Positions 1-27,969 of a stretch of DNA of 64,000 nt are shown here, one piece after another; the first letter of the stretch is position 1, and every line of letters starts with the position of its first letter. A program made the translations under genes and the position numbers. The notes under the pieces are model-generated. The model worked only from the letters and a program-made list of their open reading frames with translations. It had not been told where the DNA came from and did not search any database. Origin of the DNA: Cyanidioschyzon merolae (taxonomy: Eukaryota); the NCBI GenBank assembly GCA_000091205.1, contig AP006487.2, one strand, 5' to 3'.

Positions 1-4
1 GCAG

Positions 5-653
5 TTGCAGCTCATGACCTCTGTGCTGGAGGTTGTCGGACTTGCGCTGCACTGTGCTGGCCCAGAGTCTAGTCTGAGCGACATCGCTGGACCTGAGGCA
101 ATGCCAGGCATTCTGCGAAGCCTGGCTCGGGATCTGTTGGGACTGTTTGCGACCCCGTTGCTCAAGCGAATCTGTGCATTCAGCAACGCAGGTGTATCGG
201 CACACGTGGTGCATCAGGCACTTGGCGCCTGGCACAAAGCGATTGCTGCGAGTTTCGAACACTGGCTCTCCTGGGACTCGGACACGCGCTCGGAAACGCA
301 TACGGATGTGGCGGCAACGTTCGTCGGGATTAGTTTGACGCTGGAAGAGGCGCTGAGTGGCCTCCAGCCTCCGAAAGCAGCAGCATCGACGTTCACTGAG
401 CCTCTGTCGACGACACCGGTGTTGGACGCGAACGCTGCTGCTGCGCTGGTCACGATTTGTCGCTCCTGTCGCACCTTTTGGTACCAGGTGATGGCAAGCG
501 ACGCTTTAGCGACCACGAAGGACGCGGAAATGACCGCAGCGCGGCATCCGCAAACCGACGGAACGGGCGCGAGTGGCGCTGCGGTCGCTGCTGATGAAGC
601 GCTCCATCGTATGGCGAGCGTTGCAGTTGCGATTGCAGGTGCAGTTGCACCAC

Positions 654-688
<35 letters not shown>

Positions 689-2623
689 CAGCAAAACACT
701 CCAACCGAGACGCGACGATCCCTCTACGCTGCGCAGTGCGCCCTGATCGAGATGCTCGTACCGCTACCGCTTACGCTGAACGCAATGGATGCACCGGTTC
801 ACCTCTCGAAATGGAACTGCCAACCGGAACATCGCGTGAACAAAATCACTGGACAGCTCGTGAGGTATTTCCAAGCATCCACGACATCGCTTGCCCGCTT
901 CGAGCAACAAACAGCCGTATGGATCACCGACGCGAGCGCCGATGGCGAAGCAGCGCTTCGTGCAATCGCACTAGCGACCTTGACCTATGCACTACAGATG
1001 AGCACTGCGGTCGCGGTACAGGTTGCAGGTGAGGCGGTACCCGCGATATCGACACCAGGCGAGCGTGTGCTTGCCAACAGGGACGCAAGCTCATCTTCAC
1101 ATCGACATCCACAGGTGCAGGTGCAGGCGAATCGATTCGCCCACATGATGATGATTGGACAGGCGAGTGCGATGGCGCGACTCGGACTCTGTGCAGCTGC
1201 ACTCGGTGAGGATGCGGTGATTGGGCACGAGGGTTCAAGTGTGACACATGTGTCGCTTGCCGTCCGCAACCTTTATCTGTTTGAACAGCATTTGTCGCTT
1301 TTTGTGCAACTGGCAGTGAGCGCTGCGAGGCAGGGCACCACGATCCGCCTGTTGCCGAGTTTGCTGGAGGCACTGCACGCTTGGGTGAGGCAGGGTGTCG
1401 ACTCAGGGGCGTTGCTGTTTCCAGTGGGGGTTTCTTTGGCGCAGCGATCCGGCAACATATCGCCGCTTCTCCAACGACGAGCGGTGCTGGTGCGTCGCCT
1501 CATTATGTTCGCTGCGCTTCTCGCGCTTCAGCTACCGTCTGGTGTTGCGACTGCGGCGCCGTCGTGGCGAGCGCTTGTCGAGATCGCGCTCCAACTGGGT
1601 AGCCTCTGGTTAGCGAGCCGATCCCTGATGCATACCGAGCATGCGCTGACGACGCTCCAGATCGGTATCTGGTATGGGCGTTTGCTGTGTGCGCTTCCCG
1701 CAGCGCTCTACGCGGAGCAGTCGGCCCTGGAGGCCATGCGTCACTCGTTTGTGCTCCAGTGTGTCGAGCTGCTTCCGCACCAAGCAGGTGCGGTGCATGA
1801 ACCCGACACTGCGACTCGTGGCGACGTAGCAGGCATCGCAGGCGCGGTGACGGTAGGCACAGCGCCCTGGGATGCAACCCGGTCTGCCGCCGATGCCGTG
1901 CTGACCACGTCGTTGCCGCGCTGGCATCGAAACTGCGAGCACCCCGAGTCGCCTGCGGGTACCCCACAGGCCCTGAATGGATCGCATGCGGCGCCAGGGC
2001 CGAACGATAACCGCATCCAGTCGTTCCTGCTGTGTCGTCTCGAGCTTTTACGCATCATGCTTGAACTGAATATGCACGAGAAGGTGCCCGGAGTCAGCGG
2101 TTGGAGCGATCCGGTACCCGGAGGCGACCCCATTCGTACCAGCCCACTGGCGCAGTTCATTGCCGGCAGTGCTGGCAGCACAGCGCTTCCCGCACCTCCA
2201 CGGATACGTGCCGAGCATCTATCGCTGGGACTTTTGCGGCTCGCCAGCGAATGCATCACTGCGGAACGCGCTCAGCGCGGGGCTAGTCATCGAAATGCGG
2301 CTGCGGGACCGCGCTGGGCGCTGGAGCGCCAGCAGCAACTAGAAGCGATGCGCTACCGCGAGGTGCTCGAGCGAACGCTCTGGTTCCTGTTAGCGATTTT
2401 TGAGCCGTCACCTGCAGGCGTTGCAGTACCATGGCAGGTTGCCTCGCAGCGAACACGTCACTGGATAGACTGGCTGTACCAGGAACTGGAAACGCATCGA
2501 GATGATGCACGTTGGTTACTTCGGCGACTGCTGGCGCGACGACTGCGCCAGTGGATCCCCGGTGCTCCCGCTCCGACGGTGCGTTCGGCAGGGACGCGCT
2601 CGCCACCGGTCGTTAGAGCATGA
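5..2623 (+). CDS. C-terminal 872 aa of a large low-complexity protein of unknown function; 5-prime end runs off the window
   Basis: Continuous 2.6-kb ORF that is open at the window edge; the first codon of the ORF track is TTG, not a real start. Contains (GCA)n poly-Ala and poly-Gln codon runs. No domain I can recognise. Confidence 0.4.
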
Positions 2624-2842
2624 GGGAGACCGATTTTCACAGGTTTCTGTTCTCTCTGGCAGCGGCCGTAGCAGCAGCAACAACAACAGCAGCAGCGTAT
2701 GAAGGCAGGCGGTGCGGCAAGCGGTGCGTATCTGCGATAACGCGACTGTGGGGCGCGAGCACAGACCACCCCCGAGCGTGTCGCCCCAGGTCGGCGTCGA
2801 GCGAGCGCATGTCGATACCGCTTCCATCCGTACCACGAGTTT

Positions 2843-4636
2843 TTATGGAGACGACATCGTAAAGTTGGCTTTGGCGCCCTGCCCAGAAAACCACGGTCCC
2901 AATGCCTGCTGCAACTCCGACGGAGTCGACAATCGCAGATCAAACTTATCCCAGGTAATCATTTCGTACAGCTGAATATAGCGCCGGCTGAGTTCGGTTA
3001 CGAGCTCGAGCGGTGCTTCTGGGAGCTTCTCGTCCTTGTAGGGATCGCAATGATCGCGGTACCAGAGCCTGAGGATCTCTTTGTCGATATTTTCAGGTTC
3101 TTTGCCGCTGGCGATACGCTCTTCATAGGACGTGGCGAGCCAGTAGCGACTCGAGTCGGGTGTATGGATCTCGTCGATCAAACAAATCTGACCGTCTGCA
3201 TCGCGTCCAAACTCGTACTTTGTATCCACTAGGATCAGGCCGTGCTCCGAGGCAACTTGTTGGCCGTACTCGAAGAGTCGCAACGCGTACGCTGCGCAGG
3301 CGTCAAAGTCGACCGCGCTCATGAGACCGCGGTCGATGATTTCCTGACGAGAGATGAGGGCATCGCCGATGTCCTCCTTGGTTGTTGGGGTCACCAAATT
3401 CATCCAGAGTTTTTGGTTTTTGTGAAGATTGTCGGGGAGCTTAATACCACAGTATTCCCGAACGCCTCGCTCGTAGTTCTTCCACAGGGATGTCGATGTG
3501 GAGCCCGTTGCATATCCTCGGACAACGAACTCAATCGGAAACGGATCACAGCGCTTGGCGATTGTCACATTGGGATGTGGTACAGCGATCAGGTGATTGG
3601 GCACGATGTGTTCGGTGCGGCGGAACCACCACGCCGATACCAAGTTAAGCACTGCACCCTTGAAGGGCACAGCAGCCAGCACTCGGTCGAATGCCGATTG
3701 ACGGTCTGTGGTTACGAGAATCATGTGCTTGGCAGCGTCCGAGTAGAACTGATCTCGAACCTTGCCTTGCTTCTTTCGCCAGGTACCTGCATGCTGCTGG
3801 ACCAGCGCAGACAGCACTCCATCCGTCGAGACCAGCACGTTGTTTTCGCGTGCTGCAGCCTGGATATCCGCAAGGTAGGCGCTGGTCGCGACCTCCGCGT
3901 CATCGACGTACAGCCGATCGCGATTCGCTTTCTGGAACGCCCGAACCCGGTCTCGCACGAGCGGATCGTGAATGCCCAGAATCTTCGCAGCTGTTAGGGC
4001 TGCATTGCCGGGGTCCAGAGAGACCACCGGCGCAATGCCACCCGGCATACGCAGGCTCGAGAAGATGTCAGCACCGCCAAAGGCATCCGACGGCGGCGGA
4101 CAGGCGATCACGGGCGACGCCACCGACCCGTCGAGTAGCCCCGAGAGTGCGTTCGAGCGACCAGCGACCGAGATGTATACTTTGGGTCGAGGATCGGCCT
4201 CGAGTCGACCGACAACCTCCAATAGCCGAGTAGGCACCTTGTGGGCAGAGAGCACGTGCATCTCCGTTGCCAGGCCGAAGCGATGGCAGGCTGCGGCGAT
4301 CTGATCACAGTGTTTTTTGTCGGCCTTGGATCCCATGAGAATCGGCACAAGTGGCGTCAGACGACCCTGTGCGCTATGATCGCCTATCGAATTGTTCCCA
4401 GAAGACGTCACAGGCGCAGTCAAGTCCATCGTAGAGCAATTCAGGGTTCGCAACACTCGCGGAGGCGCGAGTCGTCGGCTTCCTAGTCGTGCTGGAGCAC
4501 CGTTCGCTGTGCGACAGGTGCCTCCAAACTGATTCTTCCCAGATGATACGTGATGAAAGCAAGTGATTGTGTTTGAATGAAACGATGAGAAACGCAGTCC
4601 CAGTGGACTGCTTGTCGACGTTACGAATCCAAACAT
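2843..4636 (-). CDS. Bifunctional purine-biosynthesis enzyme: class II AIR carboxylase (PurE-like) N-terminal domain fused to SAICAR synthetase (PurC-like) C-terminal domain. Has an N-terminal organelle-targeting-like extension.
   Basis: The translation has PurE hallmarks (ILMGSKAD...SAHKVP...VAGRSNALSG...SLRMPGGIAP) followed by SAICAR synthetase hallmarks (LILVDTKYEFG...LIDEIHTPDSSRYW). The ORF is open from 4954. In-frame ATGs lie at 4636 (MFGFVTSTSSPLGLRFSS..., Ser/Thr-rich with Phe at +2, transit-peptide-like) and at 4429 (MDLTAP, just before the PurE domain). Start choice is uncertain. Confidence 0.8.
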   Translation of the reverse strand: MFGFVTSTSSPLGLRFSSFHSNTITCFHHVSSGKNQFGGTCRTANGAPARLGSRRLAPPRVLRTLNCSTMDLTAPVTSSGNNSIGDHSAQGRLTPLVPILMGSKADKKHCDQIAAACHRFGLATEMHVLSAHKVPTRLLEVVGRLEADPRPKVYISVAGRSNALSGLLDGSVASPVIACPPPSDAFGGADIFSSLRMPGGIAPVVSLDPGNAALTAAKILGIHDPLVRDRVRAFQKANRDRLYVDDAEVATSAYLADIQAAARENNVLVSTDGVLSALVQQHAGTWRKKQGKVRDQFYSDAAKHMILVTTDRQSAFDRVLAAVPFKGAVLNLVSAWWFRRTEHIVPNHLIAVPHPNVTIAKRCDPFPIEFVVRGYATGSTSTSLWKNYERGVREYCGIKLPDNLHKNQKLWMNLVTPTTKEDIGDALISRQEIIDRGLMSAVDFDACAAYALRLFEYGQQVASEHGLILVDTKYEFGRDADGQICLIDEIHTPDSSRYWLATSYEERIASGKEPENIDKEILRLWYRDHCDPYKDEKLPEAPLELVTELSRRYIQLYEMITWDKFDLRLSTPSELQQALGPWFSGQGAKANFTMSSP

Positions 4637-5105: not shown

Positions 5106-6600
5106 GTGCACGGCAGCTCGTTGACACGCTCGTGTACACGCGGGATACCTGATCGAGCGCTCGGTATTCGGTGTGCGGTGAGGCATCCGTCGTTCCACGA
5201 GTTGCTTCCGAGTTCAACTGCCAGCACGTTCCCTCTAAGATACTGGTTATTCATTTGTTCTATTGTGGATCGAATGCGGGCAATGAGCGTCACGGGCTTC
5301 GCTTCTAGCGTCAGAGCGGTCGTCGACTGTGCGTGATGCGGCGCGTGCGCTGAGGGCGCTGGCTGGTACTTGGCCGTGTTCAGCATCGCGGATACCGTGC
5401 TGCTGCTGTAGAATGGCGTCTCGTCGATGAACACATATAGGGGGAAAAAGGCTGGTCTTTGGGACGCAATCGATGATTCGCATTGCCGAGTTCAGCGCTA
5501 TCTCAGCATTGCTATGTGATCAAGTCATCGAGGGAAGATCTCGGGTGTTTGCTCTCGTCCATCCAGCAGCGCGAATCGCTGTACCCACAAATCCTCTTCA
5601 ACCTGATTGGTAGAAAACCTGATGCATGCAAAGTCTGCGCATACCCTGTCTGTTTGACACGGAAAAGCATGCAGATTGCTACCCAGGACCTGGACCATGA
5701 AACCGGTTGGTTTACGAATCCTCGTTCGAGGGCGTCGCCATGCATCGGTCTTGCGGTGCCGCAACGATTTCCAGTGGCACAGCGCCCAGAGCGCCACGCC
5801 CAGGAGACAAGCGAGAATCCCAAGAATTCGGACGAATCCGTAAGACCCCATTGCTACACTTCGGTTATCGAAGCTGTACACCTGAACAGCATTCCGATAA
5901 AAATGTCAAGCCAGGACTAGAGCCAGCAGTCCAGTGTCCCATTTTATTTGAACATCTGTGTCGGATACGTCGTGTGAGCGCGTTCCTAGTCGCGCGGTCC
6001 AGGGTGCCTGCACACCGTTTTTCATCAATGGGGCGGAACAAACGACGTACCGCAAAAGACCCGGCCAGGTCATGTCCGTCGCAACAACGGAATACTCGCG
6101 TCGACTAATTCCACTGTTGCATGTCGTTCTTCTTAAAGCGCGCTGAGGAAACATCCAGCGTCTTCCAAACGCAGTTTGAGCAGGGATCGCTGATGCCGAT
6201 CCACGGATTCCAGGTGCACAGATCCCGCTCAAATACCCGGAGTTGATGCGCTCCTCCAGGTGATGAGCGTTGTGCCCTGTCGTGATCGCGCGTTGCAGTG
6301 CTGGAGCACCGTGTTCCTTCCGGTGGACGCTTCGCATGACATGATGAGCATAAACAACAACGGGGCCCGTGCAGGTAGATACGGTCAGCCTTGGCTCGGA
6401 AACCTGTGCACCGCTCGCGCTTACCTATGCGTTCACGCTGCTTCATGCGGGAACACAAGCGCCACCGGCACCACGTTCATTTCGTGGCATTCGGATGTCA
6501 TGCTGGAGCAGACGTATGCCCGTGACCACATAGGAAGCGCCCGATCCAAGTCTAAACGGGGCCCCAGCGACAACCTGCAAATCACGGTGCTCCGCCGTAG

Positions 6601-7023: not shown

Positions 7024-7214
7024 AAGGGCACTCTATGGAGTACGCCTAAAATACCAACCTGTCGTTGCCGCAAGCTCCGGGTTTGTGGTTTCCCGCCACC
7101 AGTTCAACAACTCGCTGCAGCAGTTGCTGGTGGACGTGCTAGAGGCACTGACCACGCAGCGGGTCGATGACGTACAACGCGCGTGGTTTTCTGTTTTGGC
7201 AGAACGTTGATCTG

Positions 7215-8560
7215 GACCATGGATACTAGATCCTGGGATGGATATTGCTGTTCGGGAAAGCGTCCATTAGTCTTCACTCTACCTCCGAATTCCATGACCC
7301 ATACTTCCCCTCGGATGTACTGGTCGTTTCGTACGTTCCATTGTGCACCGAGCGCATGCGATGGGCGTCTACGCTAGCGAATGTACTGCTGGGGCGGATG
7401 CAGCACGGACAGAGAACGGCTTGGCCATGCCATTCAGGCCGTCCACTCGAGGCGCAGTGCCTAGGGCGCGGAGTAGGAACTCATCCTCAACCTGGGAGCC
7501 AGCAAGCTGCGCAGACAGACCTACTGCCCGTGACAGTGCGGAGCGATTTGCTCGGATGATCCGGCGACCGGTGGAATACCTGGATGTAGCCTAATCACGA
7601 CTAGTCCAGGAAGAAAGTGCCTCGCGGGCGAGTTGCTCAGGTCGCAACCCCTGTATCCGCCGCGGGAGGCAGCACGAAGCACTTGCCTGGCACACTCGTC
7701 CGGCTCGTGGGACGCTCCACCTGGAAGGTAAACTTGCAGGAATGTGGAAAATTTTGCCCCCTTTTACCGTTTCTCGTCCAGGGGAAAGAAACTGTTATCG
7801 AGTTGCTCGGTAGTGGGTATTTTCTGTCTTTCGGCACAGTTGCAACGAGTAAGCGGTTACTTTCTGGTCTTAGCACCTCGGATGCCTCGTCGAATCATTG
7901 AAGACCTGTCCTGGACGTCCGGCGATGTCCTCGTACTGGACAACATGGCGTTTCACCGTTGCCCTTAAGTTCGAGCAGCAGCTTCTTATTCCTCCTCCGT
8001 GCACTCGTTTGTTGAACCGTATTGAAGGAGTGTTATCTTTCGGGAAATATCATGATCGCCCGAGTAAGCGAATCGCTGAAACGTTCAGTACACGATGACA
8101 CTAAGGCACATGTCGTCTTTTTTCCGCAAGTCCTTCGTCCTCCGGTAAGGTCCTAACCCAAGCGCATAAACAAGTGCGATCATTCCCAATAATAAAGCAT
8201 CCAAGGGATAAGCCAGAACAGACACTCCAGAAAGTCGAAAATGAGAGAAGCCAGCGGAGCGCTCCGGCGATAGAAACCCACAGAGAGCTGACAGAGCAGT
8301 AAATGGCACAGAAGAAACCAGTCCGAGGAATCTCTGGTTTGGCGAGATCAACCAGAAGTAAAATACATATAGAGTTCGTGAACCGCGACTCCAACGCCGC
8401 CATCAATATCACGAGATGTGCATTCCGAAACGCGACACCTGTGAAGCTCACACGAGCGAACTTTGCGGGACACCCCCCTGAGGATCCAAATGAACACGGA
8501 TAAACTGAAACCGATAACCGTCAACCAGGCAAAAAACGACCGCGATGCATCCGCGCCCCC
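7215..8560 (+). mobile_element. Degraded, internally deleted copy (E1) of a Fanzor/TnpB-like element. Consists of the ~600-bp family-specific 5-prime repeat (repeat C, 7215-7800) plus the C-terminal RuvC-II/RuvC-III remnant.
   Basis: 7215-7800 aligns with 24690-25270 (for example tggtcgtttcgtacgttcc, gcaagctgcgcagacag, cccccttttac blocks). 8100-8503 encodes a remnant homologous to the C-terminus of the 27026-27706 ORF (KVRGLVAFV...RDFNAAVYI vs PVRGISGLA...RDSNAAINI). The 3-prime tail motif ctgaaaccgata... is shared with the other copies. Confidence 0.6.
8303..8503 (+). pseudogene. TnpB/Fanzor-like RuvC-III C-terminal fragment (part of E1)
   Basis: Translation ...IHIEFVNRDSNAAINITRCAFRNATPVKLTRANFAGHP matches the TnpB-family RuvC-III signature (RD-x-NAA-x-NI) and the equivalent region of the larger copies at 27480-27700 and 44843-45151. 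Confidence 0.6.
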
Positions 8561-8909
8561 CGAGTACCCATCTGTAGCCCGTCGACGTGAGACGCGCGCG
8601 ATCCGGACACGTCTCGTGAACGGATCGCGCGCGTGCATGCAGGTGCCGCTGCGCCACTCGCTCGCGGAACACCAACTGCTCCCTCGATCGGCGCTCGCGG
8701 GTGGAACGGCGCAGCGGCGCTGGGGCGCTCACCTGGCGGCCGTCGCACTCGACAGCACGCAGCGCTGCGATGCGTGCCGCATCCGGATCCGTGCGGCGGG
8801 TGAATTGCGCAGCGCGCTGTGTGTGCGCGTCGCCAAACGGCAAACGGGCAGGATCCTGTTTCTAGGAGTGCGGTATCGTCCATGCGCGTCGTGCTTTGAA
8901 AGCAGGCTC

Positions 8910-11687
8910 ATGTCCTACTACGACAGCACTTCAGGACAACATCAAGCGAATATACAAGGAAGGCAGTATCCCTCAGGGGGTTCGACTTTTACGGCGAGGC
9001 CGGCTTCTGGACGCCTTGCCAACTTTAAGACAAACTGGTTATCGTCGGGGAGTGGGCGCTTCCCGTTTTCTTCCGAGAGTCAAAACTCGACAGAAGGCGC
9101 GCAGTCGTCGAACTATCGCGGATATTCCCCTGACCAAACAGGGAGGATGCAGGCGGCGCCGGCGACTGGGTCGCGTTCCTGGTCCGGGCCCGTGAACGGC
9201 GCTGGGGGCAGCGGGGACGGCCTGCGGACTCCAGTTCGCGGCTATGGTAGCTACGGAGGCGCTGCTGCGGGTGCAGGTCCTTTTGGTGCTGCTTACACGA
9301 ATCCGTACGAGTCAACGTCGACGATAGCGTTTACGGGCCAGCCGCAGAGCGAGATGCACCTCATGATCGATGAAGCGACGCGTCCGGACTTGCCGCTTGA
9401 GCCGCCGTACCCGCAGTTTGACCCTATCATCGGACAAGTGCTGACGATGGTGCGTGGCGGAGAAATCACGGCGCGTGCTGTGAAAGACCGTCTGAAAGTG
9501 AAGAACGAGCGCACGCTGCTTCTGACGCTGGCGTTGCTCCAACGACTGATGGAGGAATGTCCAAACTTTTATATGCATATAGCAAACAAGCGTTTCTTTC
9601 GCCGAATGTGGCGGCTAGTTGTTCCCGACTACAAAAACTCTATGCGCGAGCGCTTCTACGCTACGTTCGATAAGGAAGCCCTCCAGCGCAAATACGCCAC
9701 TGGGGAGATCGACAAGCCAATCTACTACCCGGCGGTGGCCATGAAAGTGATGCAGCTGATCGAAGCCTGGGGCGAAGAATTTGAGCGTTTCCGCCCTTAC
9801 GATAGCAAGGGGCAGTTCTTTGTGAAGCGTTGGCGCAACAAGTCGCGCAAATACTCTTTCCCGCCTATGCCCGCACTTGAGGTGCCGGCTGTGTATCGGC
9901 CGGGCACATCAGAGCGTGCCATCGAACTCCGTCGTCAGCGTGAGTCTGGACAGAACCCGACCACGCCTGACTCTTTCTCAGGAAGCAGTCCTAGCACAAT
10001 GAAAGCGCGAGCTTCTGGCGCGGCGGCAGGCTCGGCAGCGCGGAACCCAACTAGACCGCGCTACGAGCTGCGGGATATCAGTGAAGCCGCTGATCTTGCC
10101 GCTGCGCTCATGGACTCCGCACCGGACGCCGGTACCGTCGCCAATGATGAGGACATAGCATCGCTGATCACGACCTGCAAGGCAATGCTTCGAGAGATGG
10201 AAAACATGGTGGCAAGCATGGATTCGGAAAAGAGTGTGGTAGAGGCGATTGCTGTGAATGAAAAATTGCTCCTGGTCATCAACCGGTTCGAAGATATTTG
10301 CTTGATGGATCCGAAAACAGTCCTGAATCGAGAAGCGGCTCGAGAGGCTTCCCGTACGAACAAGAAGCCAGCAACAGTGGATGCCGCAACCGAGGCCACG
10401 GATGTGGGCGCCATGCAGTCGCGCACTGGAGGTAAGCGCAAGACGGCTGGGTCGAGCGACGAGGAAGATTCGGACGGCTCCAGTGAGAGTGAAGACGCAG
10501 CAGGCGACGACGACGGCGTCGAGGATGATGAGCGCGTTCCAGCAAGCAACTCGAGTGGAGCGGGCCGGCGTGCGCGCGGCACAGGCGGCGCAGCAGCAGC
10601 AGCAGCAGCAGCGACGGCAACGGCGGCGGCGGCGGCGGAATCGAGCAGGTTTACAAAATCCAGCGCAGCGACAAAGGAGGACACACTGCTCTGGCTGAAT
10701 TCAGACGACGAGGATGACGAGGACGAGGCATTTGAGAAAGAGCGCTCGAGTGCGATTTCCGGACAGGGACGCGGCAGCGGAGCCTCTAGCTCCAGGAAGC
10801 ACAAACAGCCGGCGTTGCAGCCGCAACCAGTGCACAGCAGTCAAGCGAGCCGTACCCGAGCCGACACGGCGGCTACAGCGGCAGCGCAGCCGCCAGCGTA
10901 CTACATCGAGTCACCGCCCAGTACACAGTACGGATCTTACGCTTCGGCATCTTCCGCTGCGCAGAATGCCTACGGTGTGCCGCCCGGCTATCCGTACATG
11001 CACCCGGCGTATTACAACCAGGGGTATCCATACGCTGGTGCTGCCTGGAACCCGTACGGCTATCCGTATGCGGCGGCTTATGGGTACGGAGGCGCGGCGC
11101 CCCAGATGGGCAACGTTCCCAGTGGCCAAGCGCCACCCGGTGCGTCCATGATGTATGGCATGCCGTACGGCGCCTATCCTGGTGGAAATGCGTATGCGAT
11201 GTACGCGGCGGGAGATGCCGCGAACATGCCCGGAACCGCTTCAACGTCAGCGGCTCGGAACCCCTTTGAGTCCGATGGTGGCAATGAAGACGCGCAACAG
11301 GCTGCCGGGGCGTGGTCGAACGAAACCACGCGTCTGCCAGCAGTGGGTCACACGGCGCTGTTGTCGCTGACGGCGGCGGAGCCGTCAGCGTCGCATTCGG
11401 CCGACATGCCGGTACCGGCTGCAGCGGCTGCGGTGCCGCCACCAGTTGTGACGAGCCGTGGTGCGCTTGCTTTACAATCGCAATCGCGCACGTCACCGCG
11501 CGATTCGGGGCTGTTTGACGAGTTGTGGCAGGAAAAGGTATCGAGAACGGAGCAGGAATCGACGGCTCGAGCAGAGACACAAACCGGAGACGCGTCAGCA
11601 GCCCCGGATGGGCAGGGAGGCGTTGGTGCGAGCGCCACTGCGATCGCGCTGGACGGCAAAGTAAGTGAGAAAAATCCGTTTGAATGA
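8910..11687 (+). CDS. VHS-GAT domain adaptor protein (TOM1/GGA-like) with a long low-complexity tail (acidic, poly-Ala, Tyr/Gly/Pro-rich) and two NPF motifs
   Basis: After the first in-frame ATG at 8910 (MSYYDS), the region ...ITARAVKDRLKVKNERTLLLTLALLQRLMEECPNFYMHIANKRFF...KVMQLIEAWGEEFERF fits a VHS domain. ...DIASLITTCKAMLREMENMVASMDSEKSVVEAIAVNEKLLLVINRFEDI fits a GAT domain. NPFE motifs occur near the C-terminus, including the last 4 residues. The ORF track start 8463 lies in GC-rich upstream sequence without an ATG. Confidence 0.6.
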   Translation: MSYYDSTSGQHQANIQGRQYPSGGSTFTARPASGRLANFKTNWLSSGSGRFPFSSESQNSTEGAQSSNYRGYSPDQTGRMQAAPATGSRSWSGPVNGAGGSGDGLRTPVRGYGSYGGAAAGAGPFGAAYTNPYESTSTIAFTGQPQSEMHLMIDEATRPDLPLEPPYPQFDPIIGQVLTMVRGGEITARAVKDRLKVKNERTLLLTLALLQRLMEECPNFYMHIANKRFFRRMWRLVVPDYKNSMRERFYATFDKEALQRKYATGEIDKPIYYPAVAMKVMQLIEAWGEEFERFRPYDSKGQFFVKRWRNKSRKYSFPPMPALEVPAVYRPGTSERAIELRRQRESGQNPTTPDSFSGSSPSTMKARASGAAAGSAARNPTRPRYELRDISEAADLAAALMDSAPDAGTVANDEDIASLITTCKAMLREMENMVASMDSEKSVVEAIAVNEKLLLVINRFEDICLMDPKTVLNREAAREASRTNKKPATVDAATEATDVGAMQSRTGGKRKTAGSSDEEDSDGSSESEDAAGDDDGVEDDERVPASNSSGAGRRARGTGGAAAAAAAATATAAAAAESSRFTKSSAATKEDTLLWLNSDDEDDEDEAFEKERSSAISGQGRGSGASSSRKHKQPALQPQPVHSSQASRTRADTAATAAAQPPAYYIESPPSTQYGSYASASSAAQNAYGVPPGYPYMHPAYYNQGYPYAGAAWNPYGYPYAAAYGYGGAAPQMGNVPSGQAPPGASMMYGMPYGAYPGGNAYAMYAAGDAANMPGTASTSAARNPFESDGGNEDAQQAAGAWSNETTRLPAVGHTALLSLTAAEPSASHSADMPVPAAAAAVPPPVVTSRGALALQSQSRTSPRDSGLFDELWQEKVSRTEQESTARAETQTGDASAAPDGQGGVGASATAIALDGKVSEKNPFE

Positions 11688-14600
11688 CGCCCACGCGATA
11701 AGTTGTTCTGCAAACTGAGCATCACAACCCAAGACGGAGGAGAATTCTAAACCGTACCGATTTCCGACGGGCTCTGCACGCAACGCAACGCAACGCATCA
11801 CGTCATGAGTATGCGGCATCGCCTCATACGTCGGACGCGTTGTGCACGACTTCCCGATCGATGTTCAAGTGGTATTCGCTGTCGCGAGTGCATTCGGCCA
11901 CTGCCGTGGGTACTCAGACCGATCGATATGCTTTTCTGCAAGCGTCGCTGCTACCGCAGCCATCCTGGCTAGTCGCTCACGAGACACCGCGACGGCATTA
12001 GCGAACGTCCGCAACGCCGGCGTCCAGTGTTCAGGGGTTGTATGCCAAGCGTGTGCCGGCACCAGCGGTATTCCCGAGATGACTGCTTATCGTAGCACTA
12101 TGCAGATCTATCGACTTGAGCGTGGTCAACTCCGCGTCTAGCGTACGCGCTCTTCCACGCACTGCACAAAACGCACCCAAGCATTTCATGCTCGTGAAGC
12201 AGCGCTTCCTATAGCATCAGGTGACGCTGGTGTATGTGAGCAGCCCTGCACGCTGCGCATGGCATGGCAAAGGCGCGTGGCACGCACACGGGACACGTAG
12301 GTTGTGATGCGTGTCTTTCGGCGACACGCACGCACGCACGCATCCGGCGATGCATGAATGATGAGCGTGCCTGCGCAATCGGCGTTAGACAGGCAATTGG
12401 GCGCAGCTCGTGTCGTGTACGGCATCATGGACGAGAGCGAGGTGTTTTCCCTGTATTGGGCGTGTTTACTATCAAGGTGAACGTTTATACACACAGAGGA
12501 GAATCGCTGGTTTGGTGCTGTAGGCGCCTATGCTATGGTTTGTGCTGCTGTTTGAAGCGCGCGGCTCGTTCGCAGCGCAGTTTCTCGGGGTTCGCGCAAC
12601 GGTGCACCCTGCGTCTAGGCGTTGACTAGAGCGTCGAGGTTCCTCAGCGCATCGCTTCGCGTCGTCGCGGCAATTCGTTCAGCCGCGCGACACGCTGGTT
12701 CCCAAGGACTGACAGCGAGTCGCGACCCCGCAAACGGTCGACGACGCCTCAAGTCGACGCTCGTGGCGTCACTGCAAAGCTTTCCTGACTCTGTGGGGTA
12801 ACCGCAGCGGCAGCGCACCTGACAGAGCAGCAAGCATTTTTGGGGTATGCTCCGCATCCAGAGGTTCGCTGGATCGATTCGGCCTAATTTGCTTCCAGAA
12901 ACACCACAAGGGGACCGGGCCACGCAGAAGCGTATCTGGAGCAATCAGGGCCTCTTCCCTGGTATTTCGTTCAGTTGGCGCTTGCGGGACCTCTGGTTAC
13001 AGAACATCACTCGTACATCGTTAGAATACTGCGTGCACCTCGGGGGCTCTGAGTAAGATTTCCCTGTTCTGCTTGAAAGAAATCAAAATCTTGCGCAGCA
13101 TCCTGGGGCCATTCGCTGTCGCCCCGCCCCGTGTCGCATGATGGATGCATTATCCACGATACTGGATCATGGTACATCGATATCGTTCGCCATTTGACCT
13201 GGAAAATCTTTCCTGGTGTATATTCACAGCGCTTCAGCGTCGCAGCGTTACTGGAACGTATCGTATGAGTGCCGTGTCCCCGGTGGATTCCAATGCCCTT
13301 TCGCATGACCATTGCATGTTTCTATCGCAAGTCTTCCGCATTTCAGCAAAACGACCAAACTCCGTGGGAAACGAATCGCCCGAAAGCTCGCTCCTTATCA
13401 AGCTGCTGGACGCTCCGGAAGCATGACACGATTCCATAGGCTGATAGAGACATTCCAGTCTCGGTGCGGAGAGCGCGTGGGTTCATGGTCGCTTGTAGAG
13501 TCACACCATGGCACGCTTGTCACCCTCGATTGCCTGGTCAACTGACGTTCGCTTATCTTACAGTGAACCGTCTCATGCAAGCGGCTTTGTTGCATTCCGT
13601 TTTTATATACCTGTTTCAGCGGTAACACATGCACCCGGTGCCTGTATGTCATCTCGAACGCCTCGTTGAGAAGCATCCAGGATCGATATCTCGATCTCTC
13701 GTTTCACGCTCGTGTCGAACGAGCACGAGTGCAGCCCCTAAGCGCTAAAGCACACCCAGCACCATAGGCTACGAGCATCGAGCAACGCTCCGTGTCTGTC
13801 ATTTGCTTCCCCAACACATTGAAGTTGGCGAATGAGCGCGCCTTGCTTGTATACGACAGAGATCATTGGCAATGCCTGCACAATCCCGGATCAACCTGCC
13901 AACTGTCGCCCGCACGAGCGATTTGGACGCTGATCCACGGTGAAAATGAAGCACAGAGTGCATCCGCCGCTTTTCGGTGCGGTGCTCAGAGCGTCGACAT
14001 GGGTCCTGACGCCGTCCCTCTACTGTTCGATATACCTCTCGACGCCTATCATGATCGACGCTTGCAATCACCTGGCCCCGGAAAAGTCGACCAGTGCCAT
14101 CTAATTTCCATTCAGGCAACTGGCTCATCCCCTTTTGCTAGAGAGGTGCGTCGACGGTCATGACGCCCATCAATCCGGGATCCACGTCCACCGCGAAGTC
14201 GTTCTCATTGTCGGCCTGGGACCGTAGAAAAACGAGTCTCATTGCTTGACGCAGGCCTCGATTTAACAAAGTGCATGGAGACAGATATTCCGTTGACCTC
14301 CAATGTCTGGGTAAACTTTATTCCATTCCATCTCTGTGAACACAGAACCATCGGCGAGAACCGCCACTGCTCTTCGAGAGGTCGTTCGAATGCTTCGAAG
14401 GTGCGCGCGAGTGCCACCCGTAGATCACTGACGTGGTCATATAGTACACACGTTCCAACTGTAATAGAATAGGCCATGATGTGACACGTGCAAACCACAA
14501 TGAATAGACGCTTGAGAAGGCCGGGGCGCTCTGATGCGGGCAGCGAGCCTTGTTTGCGCTGGACGGCGCCGTCCAGGAGCACGAAGAAACGCAAGATGCG

Positions 14601-16255
14601 AGGAAAGCAGCCATCACCTCCCAACACTGCGTCAGATACGATGTTCTTCGGTCCGAGGCAGAGAGAAACGACATGAGCTCGAGTGATTTCAAGCGGCGCT
14701 CGCTCTCGTTGCCATGCCTCTTCCGAGCTCGCTACCGTTTCGATCTCTTCCGGCAATTGGTCGTCATTTTGCCACCATCGACATCAGATGACTACCCTCC
14801 ATCAGTCCCAGATTTTCTGGTTCAGTAAGGTGAACCTACAACGCTCATGAGGAGTGCCTCACGAGGCGCTCGATATTGACCAGCGTATAATTTGATTTTT
14901 GCTTGATAAAATGTCGGTATCGGTGCTGTAGATACCCCGATCGCGGACGCGTCGAGGTATGCAGAGAAGCGTGTGTCTGCGAATCTCTGACCCTACGAGC
15001 AGGCCGTACTTCATCTTCTGTTCAGAGCATTATTTGCGTCTCGGCATGAGGGTTTGATCTATAGACCTATGTACGAGAGGAAAAGGGACAGCGGGAAGCC
15101 CTGCGTCTGGATAACGTATGAACAGCTGCATGACGATGTGTGAGAAGGCGAGAGAGGCTAAGCGCGACGTCGTCGAAAAGTCACATGATTCCTGATGCCG
15201 TTCTGCATTCAACGGTTCTCTGAATGCGAACGACTCATCTATGGATCCGTGAGCATAGAGAAAGCGTTTGAAAACATACAAGAATCGGCCGTCTGGATGG
15301 AACCAGGGATATTCAGCTGGCACAAAGAGCAGATCAACGCATGTATCTGCTGCGTACTACTTGATCGCTTACGAGCCAGGAAGAACGACGGTTTCTCTGA
15401 GCAGGACATAGGTGCGTGAGACGGAGGAGCATGAATTCCTCCGACGAAGGATGAGGTGTTGAACGATTCTTCCCGTTTGTCGATAGTTAGGCGAACACAT
15501 GATTGAATCGCTTCTAGAGCTGATCCTGTTGTCGTTTTCGCATGTCTTCTCGTTACGAACACCCGTCGCTCCTGTCGTAAGTGTTAGCGTTTCCGTATGG
15601 AAACGTTCGTTTGCTGTTCAACGCGCAGCGCTCTCGAATAGAGGCGTGCTTTTCTTCCACGCGCACTCGCGTCGCTGCATCAGAGGTCACTTCAGCGGTC
15701 CGAAACCCTCGTACCCGACGGTTTCTTTGGTAATATTCGTAGAGAAGATATGAACTGGAATGGGTTGAGATGGAACCCCGGGTATAGCTTTAGGTAGATA
15801 AGTTCTGTTTAGGGTGCACGCTGCCCAGGTGAACGACAACGACAAAGGGGGTTCATCCACCTGCCTTCCATACGATGACTGACTAGTAGCGCTAAGCTCG
15901 GTATTCGCTAGCTATCAGTGACAGCACACAGTCTCCCCGCAACAGATCCCCTATCTGCCGAATTCATTGCTTTTGCTGGAGAGCTGTGAGAAAAGCACAC
16001 GGAAATCAGTACGGTGCCGTGGTACCAGAATCGCAGACTGTACTATTCGTTCTAAATATGTACATCATAGACATAGCCCGTCGAACCGTTCTGATTTTCA
16101 AATCCCTCGGCGCGGGCGGCCACGAAACACGCCAGTGCGTTGAGGCGGCGATACAGCGCCTCTTCGCGCAGTCTCGCCTTTCCACGGGTGCCGGTGGTCT
16201 GTTCGCGAAAACCTTCAGTTTGCAGCCGATTTCTAAAATTTAGGCTTCTGAACGA

Positions 16256-22300: not shown

Positions 22301-23074
22301 AAAAGAGTCGCCATGCCACGACGCCGTTTCCTTTTTTGACGTGAATCCGTCGGCGCGAATTCCAGCGCCCACGAATTGCCTTGAAACAGAAGGACGGAGA
22401 ACATCAACATGCATTGATTTGACCATGCTAGTTGTGAGGAAATGTGATGCTTGATGACTCATTCGTACGCAGTCGATCATGGCACCGGTGATTCAAGAAA
22501 CCGTTGTTCAGAGGCGTTGAAAATCGAGCTAATCCGGATGACGTGACGAATCCCAGCAGCAAATCGTCAAAGGAGTGACTCCGAGAACACCCTCGGAACG
22601 CTCAAAATTAGTTATGAATCTCTCAGCCTTAATTTTTGCACGTTGCATGTCGTCGTTTTACGTGGAAAGAATTTCGTAAAAAAATCGCCATGCAGGACCA
22701 GAGCAAGCAGTTCAGTGTTCCAGGTTCAGCTACTGATATGAGCGAATGTCGTAGACTCCAGCGCACGTGCAGATGCAACGTCTATTGATGCACGGGTGGA
22801 GCGACGCGAGCGAGCTTCTCTTGAGCGAAGGCGATGCAACGCAACGTCGTCGTCCTGCCGAGCCTCATGGCATGCCGCGGACTCCACCGGGGAGCACTCA
22901 TACGAACAGACACAAACACATATACATACACTCGATGGGAATGGGTTCCAATGCGAGTATGTTTTCTGGTAAAACAGGGCGCCGTCGACAGGGTGTCTGC
23001 CCTACCATTCGCCAACGAGGTGGGCGGCAGCTTCGTCCAGGGCGCCGGCGCAAACGCTGCGGTCACTGTTTGGT

Positions 23075-24253
23075 ATGAGCAAACCAGCGGGTGGCTGTGG
23101 TGGCAGCGTCCCGGTGCCGGGCGATTGTCCCAAAAAGCTACTTTTTCTGGGTCCACGACAACTTGCAGTTGTTCCGGATGGGTCGCTGAGTCGCCCTCTG
23201 GAGCCAGACGAGGTTCGCGTCAGAGCGTTGTGCTCGGGCGTCAGCGCGGGCACGGAACTCTTGTTGTACAGGGGTCAGATTGTGGCGGACGATGCGCTGG
23301 ACGCGACCATAGCGGCGTACAAAGACCCAGATGCGGGACGGCGGGAGCATCGTAGCTTGTACCCAACGACGTTTGGCTACTGCCTCTGGGGAGAGGTGGT
23401 CGCTGTTGGGTCTGGGTTGGACCGCGAGCGCTGGGTCGGTAGCGTTGTTTTTCTCCTCGCTGGGCACGCCGAGGAGCACATTGTGAAAGCCAGTGACGTC
23501 CTTTTTTTCGCAGACGACTGGAACGGGGCCACTCGGGAGCTAGTGCTCGCTGTTCCCCAGCTGATTCCCGTCAGCGAGACGGTGACGTGCTGGCTACAGG
23601 ACGCTGCCCCGGTGCTCGGCGACCGGGTTGCAGTGGTCGGTGCTGGACTCTACGGCTCTGTGTTGGCGGTAGGCGGAGCTCTGCTTTTCCCACTGAGCAC
23701 ATGGCTCGTGGTGGAGCCAGATGCAAAACGACGGGCGCAGCTTGCTGTTGCGCTGAAAGAAGCGTCAGTCACACGTTGCCAAACGCTGGCACCCGACCAG
23801 GTTCAGGCGTACTTATCATCATCATCGTCATCAGAAACTCGCTTCGATATTGTGCTGGAGGTGTCTGGAACGACGGCGGGGCTCAATGTTGCGCTGGAAC
23901 TAGTCCGCGCCACGGGTCGAGTGATCATTGGCTCCTGGTATGGGCGCAAGGCACAGGAGGTACCGGTGGAGATGCTGGGCTCTACCCGCCTCCATCGAAG
24001 CCACGCCCAGATACTCTTCTCCCAGGTCAGTGAGATACCCCCGTGGCTCGCTGGTCGTTACGATAAGCGTCGACGATTGACAGTGGTGCAGGAATTTCTG
24101 ACGACCTTTTCCTCTGCGTTCAAGGCTATAGCTTGCACCGTTCGGAGCTTTGCGTTTGAGGAAGCACCTTACGTTTTTGGGCAGTTAGATAATGGGGCGC
24201 TATCGGACCCAGTTCGCTTCCTGTATGGGGATTCTTCAAGCGCTTTTTCCTAG
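23075..24253 (+). CDS. Medium-chain dehydrogenase/reductase (zinc-type alcohol dehydrogenase-like) superfamily protein
   Basis: ATG start. N-terminal GroES-like region (PLEPDEVRVRALCSGVSAGTELLLYRGQ). Rossmann GxGxxG motif (VAVVGAGLYGSVLAV) and the overall MDR layout. Confidence 0.55.
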   Translation: MSKPAGGCGGSVPVPGDCPKKLLFLGPRQLAVVPDGSLSRPLEPDEVRVRALCSGVSAGTELLLYRGQIVADDALDATIAAYKDPDAGRREHRSLYPTTFGYCLWGEVVAVGSGLDRERWVGSVVFLLAGHAEEHIVKASDVLFFADDWNGATRELVLAVPQLIPVSETVTCWLQDAAPVLGDRVAVVGAGLYGSVLAVGGALLFPLSTWLVVEPDAKRRAQLAVALKEASVTRCQTLAPDQVQAYLSSSSSSETRFDIVLEVSGTTAGLNVALELVRATGRVIIGSWYGRKAQEVPVEMLGSTRLHRSHAQILFSQVSEIPPWLAGRYDKRRRLTVVQEFLTTFSSAFKAIACTVRSFAFEEAPYVFGQLDNGALSDPVRFLYGDSSSAFS

Positions 24254-24689
24254 TGTCTGAGAGATTCTAATCTTTCTTTATGGTTCCGCACAGTCGCCAA
24301 TTCGCTTGCAGTATTTCGAATCGATACGCGTGGAGGTACTGAAAAGCAGTCGTATCTCAAAGCATCGTCCATATTTGGGTAACGCTGATACCTCTAAAGG
24401 TTCTAAAACCCGTGCTATCTCAAAACAAGGGACACGGCACGCCCGGCGCCTGTTCGTTCTTTGGACCCAATCAAGCATCGATACCAAAAGCAAGCCCTAT
24501 GTGGAGGCCACAAAAACGTAGAAGCATTTAGGTAGAAACTATAAACGCTCCCCTGGTATCTGGAACCCTTGCGGTATCCAGCGCGTCACATATGGCACGC
24601 TGTACGAATGCACGCCGCCCTGACCCTGCCATGCATCGACAGCAGCAGCGCGGGCGTGATTTTACTTCGATCACAAAATTCGTTTCCAG

Positions 24690-27800: not shown

Positions 27801-27969
27801 GCCGGGCGGCGCGCTGCCCGCCACCACTGCACACCAGAAGCGCAGCGTTTGCCGCCTGGAAGAGAGTCGTTGCTGCCGGTGTTCCTCTAGTCGAGTTTAA
27901 GAGTTTGGACCGGTCGTTCCTGTAAATCTCGATGAGATTGGGATTTTAAACGGGTGGTCATCACCGCTT

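Follow-up and report, generated by a model that had tools for sequence, protein, structure and literature searches.

A non-coding repeat of Cyanidioschyzon merolae identified by sequence as the 5' arm of the Fanzor1-carrying transposon family CMe-1A

Comparison with published consensus sequences identifies repeat C—a non-coding module that an earlier note on this DNA had described as linked to three copies of a Fanzor-like nuclease gene (E1, E2 and E3)—as the non-coding 5' arm of CMe-1A, a Fanzor1-carrying transposon family of C. merolae; the same comparison equates it also with the ORF-less dispersed repeat TE-N2_CMe. The window, the whole stretch of 64,000 nucleotides that we analyzed, is part of chromosome 5 of C. 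merolae 10D, its ORFs at 23075-24253 and 27970-29220 being identical to BAM79265.1 and BAM79266.1 (CME033C), and all the copies of the family that it contains are old, neutrally decayed relics. In the reading that we favor, and to which we would give somewhat better than even chances, the arm is a cis-acting 5' end mobilized in trans, with a one-ended spread resembling that of Helitron2.

Repeat C and its relatives in the window

The CMe-1A consensus, which we took from the supplement of Bao and Jurka, is a Fanzor1 transposon of 3169 bp whose ORF is preceded by 905 bp (Repbase; Bao & Jurka, Mobile DNA 2013, PMC3627910). Those authors reported ~150 copies of CMe-1A, at a level of ~80% to the consensus, along with ~70 copies of the 635-bp TE-N2_CMe, a separate ORF-less repeat to whose whole length the first 635 bp of CMe-1A are 95% identical; TIRs were absent from both, and TSDs could not be determined. 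The linkage of repeat C to Fanzor1 in C. merolae is accordingly already known: since a repeat of ~635 bp was connected with Fanzor1 in print in 2013, the present finding is in itself not new. The linkage is nevertheless of some value, Fanzor having since been recognized as an RNA-guided nuclease while the transposition mechanism of CMe-1A and TE-N2 is still unclassified.

Both copies of repeat C in the window conform to that family. The arm of copy 1 (7197-7831) corresponds to consensus 4-636 at 76% identity (blastn, E 1e-123), and copy 2 together with E2 (24668-27775) to consensus 1-3087 at 80% (blastn; nhmmer E 0); the host is C. merolae, and ORF-less copies of the arm are found. That the two copies align block for block, as the earlier note had it, is borne out (7214-7775 against 24690-25253, 64.8% over 571 columns, E 8e-21; self-blastn and MAFFT), the 65% identity between the arms being what is expected of copies at 76% and 80% to the consensus, in keeping with neutral decay; the alignment is thus real, but the homology of E1 and E2 does not end at 7800, running on to 8052 (consensus 858). 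The segments of the family are the following, with positions in the window:

7185-7835, plus strand: repeat C copy 1, of the TE-N2_CMe type; T-rich run at 7185-7196 plus consensus 4 to ~657 (blastn, nhmmer).
7836-8052, plus strand: E1, CMe-1A 5' region continued; consensus ~658-858, comprising the linker and a portion of the 5' UTR (nhmmer).
8221-8513, plus strand: E1 tail; consensus 2750-3044, residues 616-701 of 734, including NRDxNAAxNI (tblastn, 51% identity, E 6e-18).
24658-25317, plus strand: repeat C copy 2; T-rich run GATTTTACTT at 24658-24667 plus consensus 1 to ~660.
25318-25583, plus strand: E2 linker and 5' UTR; consensus ~661-905, A+T-rich.
25584-27786, plus strand: E2 Fanzor1 ORF, a pseudogene (three-frame translation, tblastn).
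27787-27860, plus strand: non-coding 3' tail of E2, reaching to consensus 3164; remains of a 3' hairpin.
44867-47168, minus strand: E3, Fanzor unit only, consensus 786-3087, without repeat C.
47182-47240, minus strand: claimed remnant of repeat C; marginal likeness at most, to consensus ~305-350; unconfirmed.
5135-5320, plus strand: repeat-C fragment, consensus 20-202, no nuclease attached (nhmmer E 1.5e-6; copy profile E 1.4e-5).
12446-12813, minus strand: repeat-C fragment, consensus 190-554, downstream and not upstream of an old Fanzor remnant (nhmmer E 5e-18).
13383-14768, minus strand: remnant of a very old Fanzor ORF, consensus 1698-2996, residues ~211-689 at 26-46% identity.
32241-33021, minus strand: old Fanzor ORF remnant, consensus 2172-2995.
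35918-36163, plus strand: fragment from the 5' boundary of the Fanzor unit, consensus 781-1012.
37854-37932, plus strand: short solo left-end fragment of repeat C, consensus 8-85; weak match (nhmmer E 2e-4 to 1e-3).
49487-49738, minus strand: repeat-C fragment standing alone, consensus 15-257; separated from E3 by two host genes (L7Ae-family, Thf1).
55956-56402, plus strand: short derivative of the Fanzor unit with an internal deletion, consensus 874-1005 plus 2839-3093, without repeat C.

The three linked copies of module and gene that had been counted are really two, one of them with no more than a stub of the gene. E1, which had been taken for a gene, is an element with an internal deletion that leaves it consensus 4-858 and 2750-3044; its 5' stretch, 7197-8052, matches consensus 4-858 at E 7e-105 (nhmmer) and is followed by the deletion; its tail, a 3' remnant covering residues 616-701 of 734, is the sole Fanzor-coding sequence of that copy. 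The position of the module upstream of the Fanzor sequence and in the same orientation holds for E1 and E2, but not for E3, whose homology begins at consensus 786 (window 47168), past the whole of repeat C. A remnant of the module had been placed beside E3 at 47160-47250; we reject it, as neither a profile HMM of 10-11 copies nor nhmmer with the whole consensus sees it. The gap-rich pairwise match of 47182-47240 to copy 2 (score 35) is reached by 0 of 500 shuffles, and the weak one to the consensus by 17 of 500. That stretch is located where a host L7Ae-family ORF of the opposite strand has its 5' edge.

No intact nuclease ORF occurs among E1, E2 and E3. E2 starts with ATA instead of ATG, and its homology to the consensus protein crosses at least five frame changes (tblastn frames 3, 2, 1, 3, 2, 1); E3, which is 98.4% identical to E2 over 25638-27681, has the same frameshifts, there being at least five frame changes in each. 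E2 and E3 are frameshifted pseudogenes, and E1 is internally deleted. Read by eye, the Fanzor motif of Bao and Jurka, D-X(125,275)-[TS]-[TS]-X-X-[zinc finger]-X(5,50)-RD, is present: the translation of E2 contains VVGTDRGNTN, HVDEFRTSY...C...C and ANRDFNAA, and the consensus protein VVGADPGNTN, PVDEFRTSY and NRDFNAAINI. The zinc finger of the consensus protein is atypical in having two Cys only. Pfam gave no match for either the E2 fragments or the 734-aa consensus, nor did phmmer yield any PDB chain at E up to 1; the assignment to Fanzor1 consequently rests on those motifs together with the phylogeny of Bao and Jurka, because no curated profile or structure matches.

The density of family fragments in this region—13 segments in 64 kb—is unusually high, and a 2-kb tract of E2 recurs in E3 at 98.4% identity; both circumstances could suggest that the adjacency of repeat C and nuclease in the window is a coincidence or a local segmental duplication. 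The same junction (consensus 1-905 plus ORF) is, however, found at three other, independent sites that have different host genes on their flanks and is present in the published consensus, and E1 and E2 have unrelated flanks. The independent joined copies contradict that explanation, to which we attach next to no credence.

Composite architecture of CMe-1A

Three parts make up the composite CMe-1A: the TE-N2 arm (consensus 1 to ~660), a linker of ~125 bp and a Fanzor unit extending from ~787 to the 3' end. The arm and the Fanzor unit are each also found separately. We found the arm joined to Fanzor sequence at five independent sites; Fanzor-only copies beginning at consensus 781-791 at four; and, at three independent metagenome sites, solo arms that all end at consensus 640-661, along with many shorter solo copies. 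That the Fanzor unit has its own 5' boundary, at consensus ~787, as well as its own short deletion derivatives, is, as read from these alignments, new here. The mobile unit does extend beyond the ORF, with a defined left arm, as the earlier note had proposed: the consensus has 905 bp ahead of the ORF, and five independent sites have the two joined.

Among the repeat-C sites in the window and in metagenome contigs, ~14 of the ~19 independent ones are solo or right-truncated. Copies that possess the 5' end stop at consensus ~85, 202, 257-273, 302, 538-581 or 640-661, and deletion derivatives retaining both ends are present at four sites. The copies used for mapping the ends were located by means of a 19-mer, consensus 119-137, so that metagenome copies without the 5' part were not findable; in the window, the fragment corresponding to consensus 190-554 lacks the 5' end. 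We rejected the notion of the right-truncated copies as a separate family, the sequence past the truncation points not being common to them. Each of the 15 insertion sites that were inspected falls in the space between long host ORFs. A likeness between the 3' ends of TE-N2 and CMe-1A, and another between the two 5' ends, appeared plausible by eye; neither scores better than shuffles, and both were rejected.

Dispersal of repeat C independently of the nuclease gene had been named in advance as the observation that would make the linkage coincidental, and such dispersal is in part what we find: the window fragments 5135-5320, 37854-37932 and 49487-49738 adjoin no nuclease sequence and, with 12446-12813, make up four window fragments that precede no nuclease gene; to these are added the ~14 of ~19 sites and the ~70 copies of TE-N2_CMe. 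Even so, the linkage is no coincidence, the fused form having itself multiplied to ~150 copies. On the whole, then, the earlier observation is confirmed in part and its interpretation has partial support.

Alternatively, the arm might serve chiefly for expression, as the promoter and 5' UTR of Fanzor, with the solo copies as leftovers of deleted elements. Wherever the two are joined, the arm precedes the ORF in the sense orientation, a eukaryotic nuclease gene borne on a transposon requires its own promoter, and several solo copies are near the starts of host genes. Yet the A+T-rich 245 bp directly preceding the ORF (consensus 661-905) lie outside the arm; Fanzor-only copies retain consensus 787-905 without it; solo arms have a common 3' end (640-661) at three independent sites; and the ~70 published copies of TE-N2_CMe have a separate consensus, to which the arm is 95% identical. 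An expression module is on these grounds unlikely. The most likely role of the arm is that of the cis-acting 5' end of a non-autonomous element mobilized in trans.

Element ends and mode of spread

The earlier note had set the left boundary at ggRccatggatMc (7213 and 24688); the true edge lies ~30 nt further to the left, at a T-rich run that begins at 7185 in copy 1 and at 24658 in copy 2. At 18 independent sites the homology starts at this run, beyond which nothing is conserved: the T fraction is 0.67 in the 10 nt before consensus position 1 versus 0.21 further upstream. The last four bases before the element in those sites are TTTT (5), TTTC (3), CTTT (2), or TCTT, CTTC, ATTT and others, with C and not T/U directly before the element in 5 of the 18. 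The run is nearly fixed in length and has a conserved (G)AT end, reading AAARAAAAATC on the minus strand; it could be part of the target or part of the element. As judged from the alignments, two observations on the ends are new here, namely that the repeat would start ~10 nt upstream of the published consensus, at the T-rich run, and that the 3' homology reaches ~15-20 nt beyond the published end of CMe-1A.

As to the other end, a hairpin, GCCGCCA...TGGCGGC, at consensus ~3124-3151 is kept or compensated in three of the five full-length copies (alignment, by eye). The earlier note had seen no TIR between the left arm and the right tail, and both our shuffle comparisons and Bao and Jurka agree: the left end of the arm compared with the reverse-complemented 3' region of TE-N2, and that of the Fanzor unit compared with the reverse-complemented 3' end of the element, scored no better than shuffles. 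Between the left end of the arm and the 3' end of the element the only inverted match has 10 nt, consensus 5-14 GACAAAACGT being complementary to 3100-3109 ACGTTTTGTC; 18 of 2000 shuffles reach it, individual copies do not keep it, and the site at 3100-3109 is the loop of a small hairpin with a sequence that varies between copies. The match was weighed against the asymmetric terminal inverted repeats of Helitron2, in which the 5' terminus pairs with a site shortly before the 3' hairpin.

Both a search for TSDs and a comparison with empty sites had been proposed in the earlier note. The best flank matches within a copy averaged 7.9 nt in 14 copies versus 7.4 ± 1.2 nt in mismatched pairs, so that no TSD exceeds the cross-copy control; since the copies are old, short TSDs could have decayed. 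Two longer flank matches (S17 and S18), situated ~27 nt outside the T-run, were taken as chance. The metagenome contigs, 98.6-99.4% identical to the window, contain the same insertions and provided no empty site.

A constant end bearing the run AAARAAAAATC on the minus strand, with the other end variable, is also what one would see if TE-N2 were a SINE-like retroposon on the opposite strand, in which the T-run was the A-rich 3' tail, the variable ends were 5' truncations from target-primed reverse transcription, and the fusion to Fanzor arose by antisense read-through; the boundary of the Fanzor unit moreover reads GAAAAACTAT on the minus strand. We regard this explanation as improbable, even more so than that of the expression module, on several counts: the flanks show no TSDs (7.9 nt vs. 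7.4 ± 1.2 in the control); the run, unlike a poly(A) tail, is near-fixed in length and has the conserved (G)AT end; deletion derivatives retain both ends at four sites; Rfam recognizes no tRNA-, 7SL- or 5S-like head; and a bioRxiv re-annotation finds in C. merolae no elements other than those of class II.

The Helitron2-like reading is the one that best fits the pattern, because insertion follows a T-rich run, the 5' end is kept, the 3' end is variable and there are neither TIRs nor TSDs. The arm would then constitute a cis-acting 5' end used by an enzyme supplied in trans, which enzyme may mobilize either the arm alone or the arm plus the downstream Fanzor unit; transposition would be one-ended, of the rolling-circle type; and the Fanzor gene with its 3' guide-RNA region would be cargo, reached by read-through of the arm's own end. 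In the bioRxiv re-annotation 24% of the C. merolae TEs are labeled 'helitron', on the basis of the automatic EDTA pipeline, which includes HelitronScanner. The T-run at the 5' junctions, the kept 5' ends, the two-unit composite and the absence of TIRs and TSDs thus make a one-ended, Helitron2-like mobilization a testable hypothesis.

The arm as RNA, and comparison with known systems

The description of the module as non-coding stands: the tblastx matches fall in all frames and on both strands, the arm consensus has 7-13 stops in every frame, and its longest ORF has no match in Pfam. A hidden coding capacity, such as that of a decayed TnpA-like gene, was rejected on those grounds and because the ORF is not kept, the 110-aa ORF from an ACCATGG start being lost in the copies.

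Bacterial IStrons are group I introns fused to an IS200/IS605 TnpB element, with a non-coding 5' module of ~600 nt, a TnpB-family ORF and a structured 3' tail or guide-RNA region; they are not known to have TIRs or TSDs, and solo 5' modules and ORF-less derivatives of them are also dispersed. The layout of CMe-1A resembles theirs in the order of the parts, in the absence of TIRs and TSDs and in the ORF-less derivatives, and the arm could by analogy encode a large structured RNA—a self-splicing intron module or a second RNA partner of Fanzor—or else be an ssDNA module of a eukaryotic IStron-like Fanzor element, of which the solo TE-N2 copies would be ORF-less derivatives. If this were true, a catalytic, self-splicing or regulatory arm RNA might enable residence in transcribed DNA or act as a partner of the nuclease.

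The 641-nt consensus does fold better than shuffles (z -4.4; with 60 shuffles -4.2 for the plus and -3.8 for the minus strand; -4.9 and -6.9 in an initial run), and on the minus strand there is a weak excess of pair-preserving changes, 79 against 60 ± 8 expected, which 2 of 300 controls reach. A control stretch from within the ORF, however, folds about as well (z -3.7 with 60 shuffles), for which reason a distinctive RNA or ssDNA fold of the arm was rejected; locally, only consensus 401-600 stands out. RNAalifold found one small hairpin and hardly any other shared structure, and the plus-strand fold has neither an excess of pair-preserving changes nor covariation, the former again in keeping with neutral decay. 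The arm in the window matches nothing in Rfam at the gathering thresholds, and six loci with well-kept copies plus a lone 741-nt stretch matched no family at E up to 10, group I and II introns included; since the copies are 13-25% diverged, weak Intron_gpI matches could be lost. Contrary to IStrons, then, the arm has no group I intron signature, and the nuclear copies examined all lie between host genes and never inside one, with C as the base before the element in 5 of 18 sites. We hold the structured-RNA explanation to be very improbable and retain that of the arm as a cis-acting 5' end.

With respect to CMe-1A and TE-N2_CMe themselves, the window copies belong to the family and differ in nothing essential, the published lack of TIRs and recognizable TSDs being reproduced here. 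A partial likeness exists to the Fanzor1 element MCi-2 of Mucor circinelloides (PMC3627910), which also combines a constant 3' part, the one bearing Fanzor, with a 5' region that can be separated from it, lacks TIRs and is 'fuzzy' on its 5' side; in MCi-2, though, the 5' region comes in several alternatives and the TSDs measure 11-12 bp (PMC3627910), whereas the C. merolae family has one dominant 5' arm that is itself a dispersed repeat.

The closest analogue is the group of Fanzor1 carriers of Chlamydomonas, CRe-1/2/3. These are non-autonomous Helitron2 elements whose 5' 200 bp recur in ORF-less elements of 657 and 673 bp; their insertion points follow T-rich tetranucleotides, and they transpose by one end. 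The differences are that for the C. merolae family no verified autonomous Helitron with common ends, and no transposase or RepHel partner, is known; that asymmetric terminal inverted repeats and a 5' hairpin are not demonstrated in it; that its shared 5' part measures 635 bp as opposed to 200 bp; and that the 3' ends of TE-N2 and CMe-1A are dissimilar, with no variable-length TSDs seen. In common, the two groups have a Fanzor1 ORF located behind a 5' region that recurs in ORF-less elements of ~650 bp, insertion directly after T-rich tetranucleotides with no conventional TIRs, one-ended copies and a hairpin near the 3' end.

Relics of a published family in the window

We mapped the consensus of the Fanzor1-carrying transposon family CMe-1A (3169 bp, with an ORF at 906–3110 encoding 734 aa; supplement of PMC3627910) onto the window, which procedure yielded the following segments, E1–E3 being the three Fanzor-like nuclease loci and consensus positions those of CMe-1A.

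Segments of the CMe-1A/TE-N2 family in the window
5135–5320, +, repeat-C fragment (consensus 20–202)
7197–8052, +, E1, 5' part (consensus 4–858)
8221–8513, +, E1, 3' part (consensus 2750–3044)
12446–12813, −, repeat-C fragment (consensus 190–554)
13383–14615, −, old Fanzor remnant (consensus 1698–2996)
24670–27860, +, E2, full length (consensus 3–3164)
32241–33021, −, old Fanzor remnant (consensus 2172–2995)
35918–36163, +, 5' piece of the Fanzor unit (consensus 781–1012)
37854–37932, +, repeat-C fragment, weak match (consensus 8–85)
44867–47168, −, E3 (consensus 786–3087)
49487–49738, −, repeat-C fragment (consensus 15–257)
55956–56090, +, short derivative, 5' part (consensus 874–1005)
56151–56402, +, short derivative, 3' part (consensus 2839–3093)

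It follows that E1 carries an internal deletion and that E2 is full length. The mapping also establishes what repeat C is: the ~600-bp module drawn in the earlier note is the TE-N2-type portion of a longer common 5' region, and the feature as a whole is an already published transposon architecture that survives in the window only as decayed relics. CMe-1A is present in ~150 copies in C. merolae, each ~80% identical to a ~3-kb consensus encoding a Fanzor1 protein, and TE-N2_CMe, the ORF-less repeat equal to its 5' part, in ~70; both are described as lacking terminal inverted repeats (TIRs), their target-site duplications (TSDs) as not determinable, and their class as unassigned (Bao & Jurka, Mobile DNA 2013, PMC3627910). 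With 13 segments in 64 kb, or ~1 per 5 kb, against ~1 per 75 kb genome-wide from the published copy numbers, the relics are strongly enriched in this stretch of chromosome 5.

The elements are surrounded by long host genes without introns—SMC, WDR3, PAICS, a VHS/GAT protein, Thf1, and CysRS among them—and the ORFs at 23075–24253 and 27970–29220 are identical to the C. merolae 10D proteins BAM79265.1 and BAM79266.1 (CME033C). A tRNA gene at 50681–50751 (−) is the sole above-threshold Rfam match in the entire window (RF00005, 66.5 bits). A second repeat family, unrelated to CMe-1A, forms an inverted pair (41116–42261 versus 52271–51126; 1146 bp, 99.65% identity), each member of which carries an ORF of 174 aa without a Pfam hit; 22351–22726, 41121–41496, 51891–52262, and 41723–41926 versus 60877–61080 belong to it as well, and its older copies stand at 65–68% identity. 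From 5398 on, the window is matched at 98.6% identity by a contig from another strain (L029), but positions 1–3024 of that contig, which hold a short derivative of the Fanzor unit (consensus ~787 to the 3' end), have no match in the window; the breakpoint adjoins the repeat-C fragment at 5135–5320 and marks a structural variant or else a chimeric assembly at a repeat.

Linkage of the arm to the nuclease gene

The two arms—the copies of repeat C at E1 and E2—align as the earlier note had claimed (7214–7775 versus 24690–25253; 64.8% identity over 571 columns, E 8e-21, self-blastn). This 65% is what would be expected of two copies whose identities to a shared consensus are 76% and 80%, so that the arm is without detectable constraint here. 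The third linked copy, supposed to lie beside E3, was not borne out: E3 starts at consensus 786 and hence has no arm, and the stretch read as its remnant aligns best to consensus 786–853, outside repeat C. Past 47168, the only trace is a gap-rich 59-nt match to the second copy, with a score of 35 that 0 of 500 shuffles reached; the same stretch matched the consensus weakly (17 of 500 shuffles), and both a profile HMM of 10–11 copies and nhmmer with the entire consensus missed it. A better fragment exists at 49487–49738, but two genuine host genes, for an L7Ae-family protein and for Thf1, stand between it and E3, and it is a solo copy in its own right. Nor is E1 a gene, its nuclease-derived sequence being confined to 8221–8513 (residues 616–701 of 734), just 3' of which the long ORF 8463–11687 encodes the host VHS/GAT protein. 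The core observation is thus confirmed, and the interpretation placed upon it was right in part.

Apart from this alignment, the sole large repeat in which self-blastn placed the nuclease genes was the E2/E3 pair (25638–27681 versus 46991–44946, reverse strand; 98.4%). Both translations are those of a TnpB/Fanzor-like protein (motifs VVGTDRGNTN, HVDEFRTS, and NRDFNAA) and are broken by the same frameshifts, each copy giving six tblastn pieces in alternating frames with the family protein as query; the E2 start codon is lost, being now ATA. Identity falls to the family level (~70% or less) on either side of this ~2-kb tract, both in the 5' UTR and past consensus ~3025. The tract looks like gene conversion between two old pseudogene copies, inverted and separated by 17 kb, and not like a recent duplication. 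In one metagenome contig (L035) the 5' flank of E2 runs into the 3' flank of E3, as though both copies had been collapsed in assembly.

A 19-mer taken from the arm and run against metagenome contigs gave 39 loci, 33 with family sequence, in a sample biased to copies containing consensus 119–137; the contigs are C. merolae-like (~99% identity to the window in overlaps). Grouped by flanks together with the window copies, these loci constitute ~19 independent sites beside differing housekeeping genes (V-ATPase, GATA factor, MutS, DAG kinase, ataxin-2), the arm standing alone in ~14 and joined to Fanzor sequence in 5. The earlier note had held that dispersal of repeat C independently of the nuclease gene would make their adjacency a coincidence. 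This applies in part: the repeat is dispersed on its own, as the solo sites, the window fragments, and the published TE-N2_CMe copies (~70) attest; but because the joined form multiplied too, the linkage is real, though not obligatory, and the joined copies at independent sites contradict coincidence.

At three independent loci (window 7185–12813; L017 202–6982; L025 92–7304) a + strand arm-plus-Fanzor copy is followed after 2.8–3.9 kb by a − strand TE-N2 copy, the T-rich ends therefore facing outwards, with exactly one host gene between (VHS/GAT, V-ATPase subunit, and GATA factor); this arrangement may simply come from the family being clustered where TEs are abundant. In another contig (L043 5929–7146) two arms stand head to tail, the first stopping at consensus 538 and the second, complete (1–661) and with its own T-rich run, beginning at most 5 nt later; the pair arose either in tandem or by insertion of one arm into the other at a T-rich site.

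Ends and composition of the element

In 18 independent sites homology starts at a T-rich run of ~10 nt, (G)ATTTTTYTTT, immediately 5' of consensus position 1 (T fraction 0.67, versus 0.21 in the preceding 40 nt), upstream of which those sites have no sequence conservation. The left boundaries in the window therefore fall at 7185 and 24658, ~30 nt to the left of the motif at which they had been placed; the run itself could be part of the target or of the element. Arm-only copies end at consensus ~261, 273, 302, 538, 574–581, or 640–661, the complete ones with a T-rich stretch at ~640–661. Arm-less Fanzor copies begin at consensus 781–791 (ATAGTTTTTC...) in four independent sites, and short derivatives of the Fanzor part at four sites join roughly 790–1040 to 2831–3130, two of them (window, L018) beginning later, near 871–874. 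Given these separate arm ends and Fanzor-only starts, CMe-1A is a composite in which the TE-N2 arm and the Fanzor unit are joined by a linker of ~125 bp that occurs nowhere but in this joined form. That the arm might be a promoter or 5' UTR of the nuclease gene is weakened by the arm-less Fanzor copies, which retain their own upstream 120 bp, and by the solo arms, which form a family.

We found no TIRs for the arm and no TSDs above the cross-copy control. To the eye, TE-N2 and CMe-1A resemble each other at their 3' ends, and a likeness was also seen between the two 5' ends, but neither scored above shuffles. The idea of a minus-strand retroposon with an A-rich tail loses ground because TSDs are lacking, the run has a fixed length, and one annotation reported no elements other than class II.

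The arm has no coding capacity. Its consensus folds better than dinucleotide shuffles (z −4.4 in one run; with 60 shuffles, −4.2 on the plus and −3.8 on the minus strand), a control ORF stretch of equal length giving −3.7. The local signal is confined to consensus 401–600; RNAalifold on 17 copies retained one small hairpin; and pair-preserving substitutions were not enriched for the plus-strand fold and weakly so for the minus-strand fold, where 2–3 of 300 controls reach the observed counts. We regard secondary structure as unproven. An IStron-like structured RNA is a weakened reading as well, in that the copies sit between genes and the arm matched no Rfam family, with gathering thresholds applied in the window and E values up to 10 allowed for well-kept copies.

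At the other end, 3' homology extends ~15–20 nt beyond the published consensus. By eye (consensus 3095–3151, window 27790–27850, L017, L019, L025, and L028), a small hairpin AGAC-loop-GTCT at the stop codon keeps its stem while its loop varies between copies. In a second, GCCGCCA...TGGCGGC, a C-G pair is once replaced by T-A, and several C-to-T changes would leave G-U pairing intact in plus-strand RNA. The pattern would be compatible with an RNA element, for instance the Fanzor guide-RNA scaffold.

Possible mobilisation of the arm

As to how the arm works, we infer that it is probably the cis-acting 5' end of a non-autonomous element that is mobilised in trans. Four features point this way: copies retain the 5' end and differ at the 3' end; a T-rich run precedes every 5' junction; neither TIRs nor TSDs are present; and the composite pairs the 5' end of the arm with the 3' end of the Fanzor unit. 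Of the asymmetric inverted repeat typical of Helitron2, there is here only a 10-nt match in the CMe-1A consensus, not kept in the copies. The four features match the behaviour of the Chlamydomonas Fanzor1 carriers CRe-1/2/3, Helitron2 non-autonomous elements with documented one-ended rolling-circle behaviour, whose 5' 200 bp recur in ORF-less elements 657 and 673 bp long and which insert after T-rich tetranucleotides (PMC3627910).
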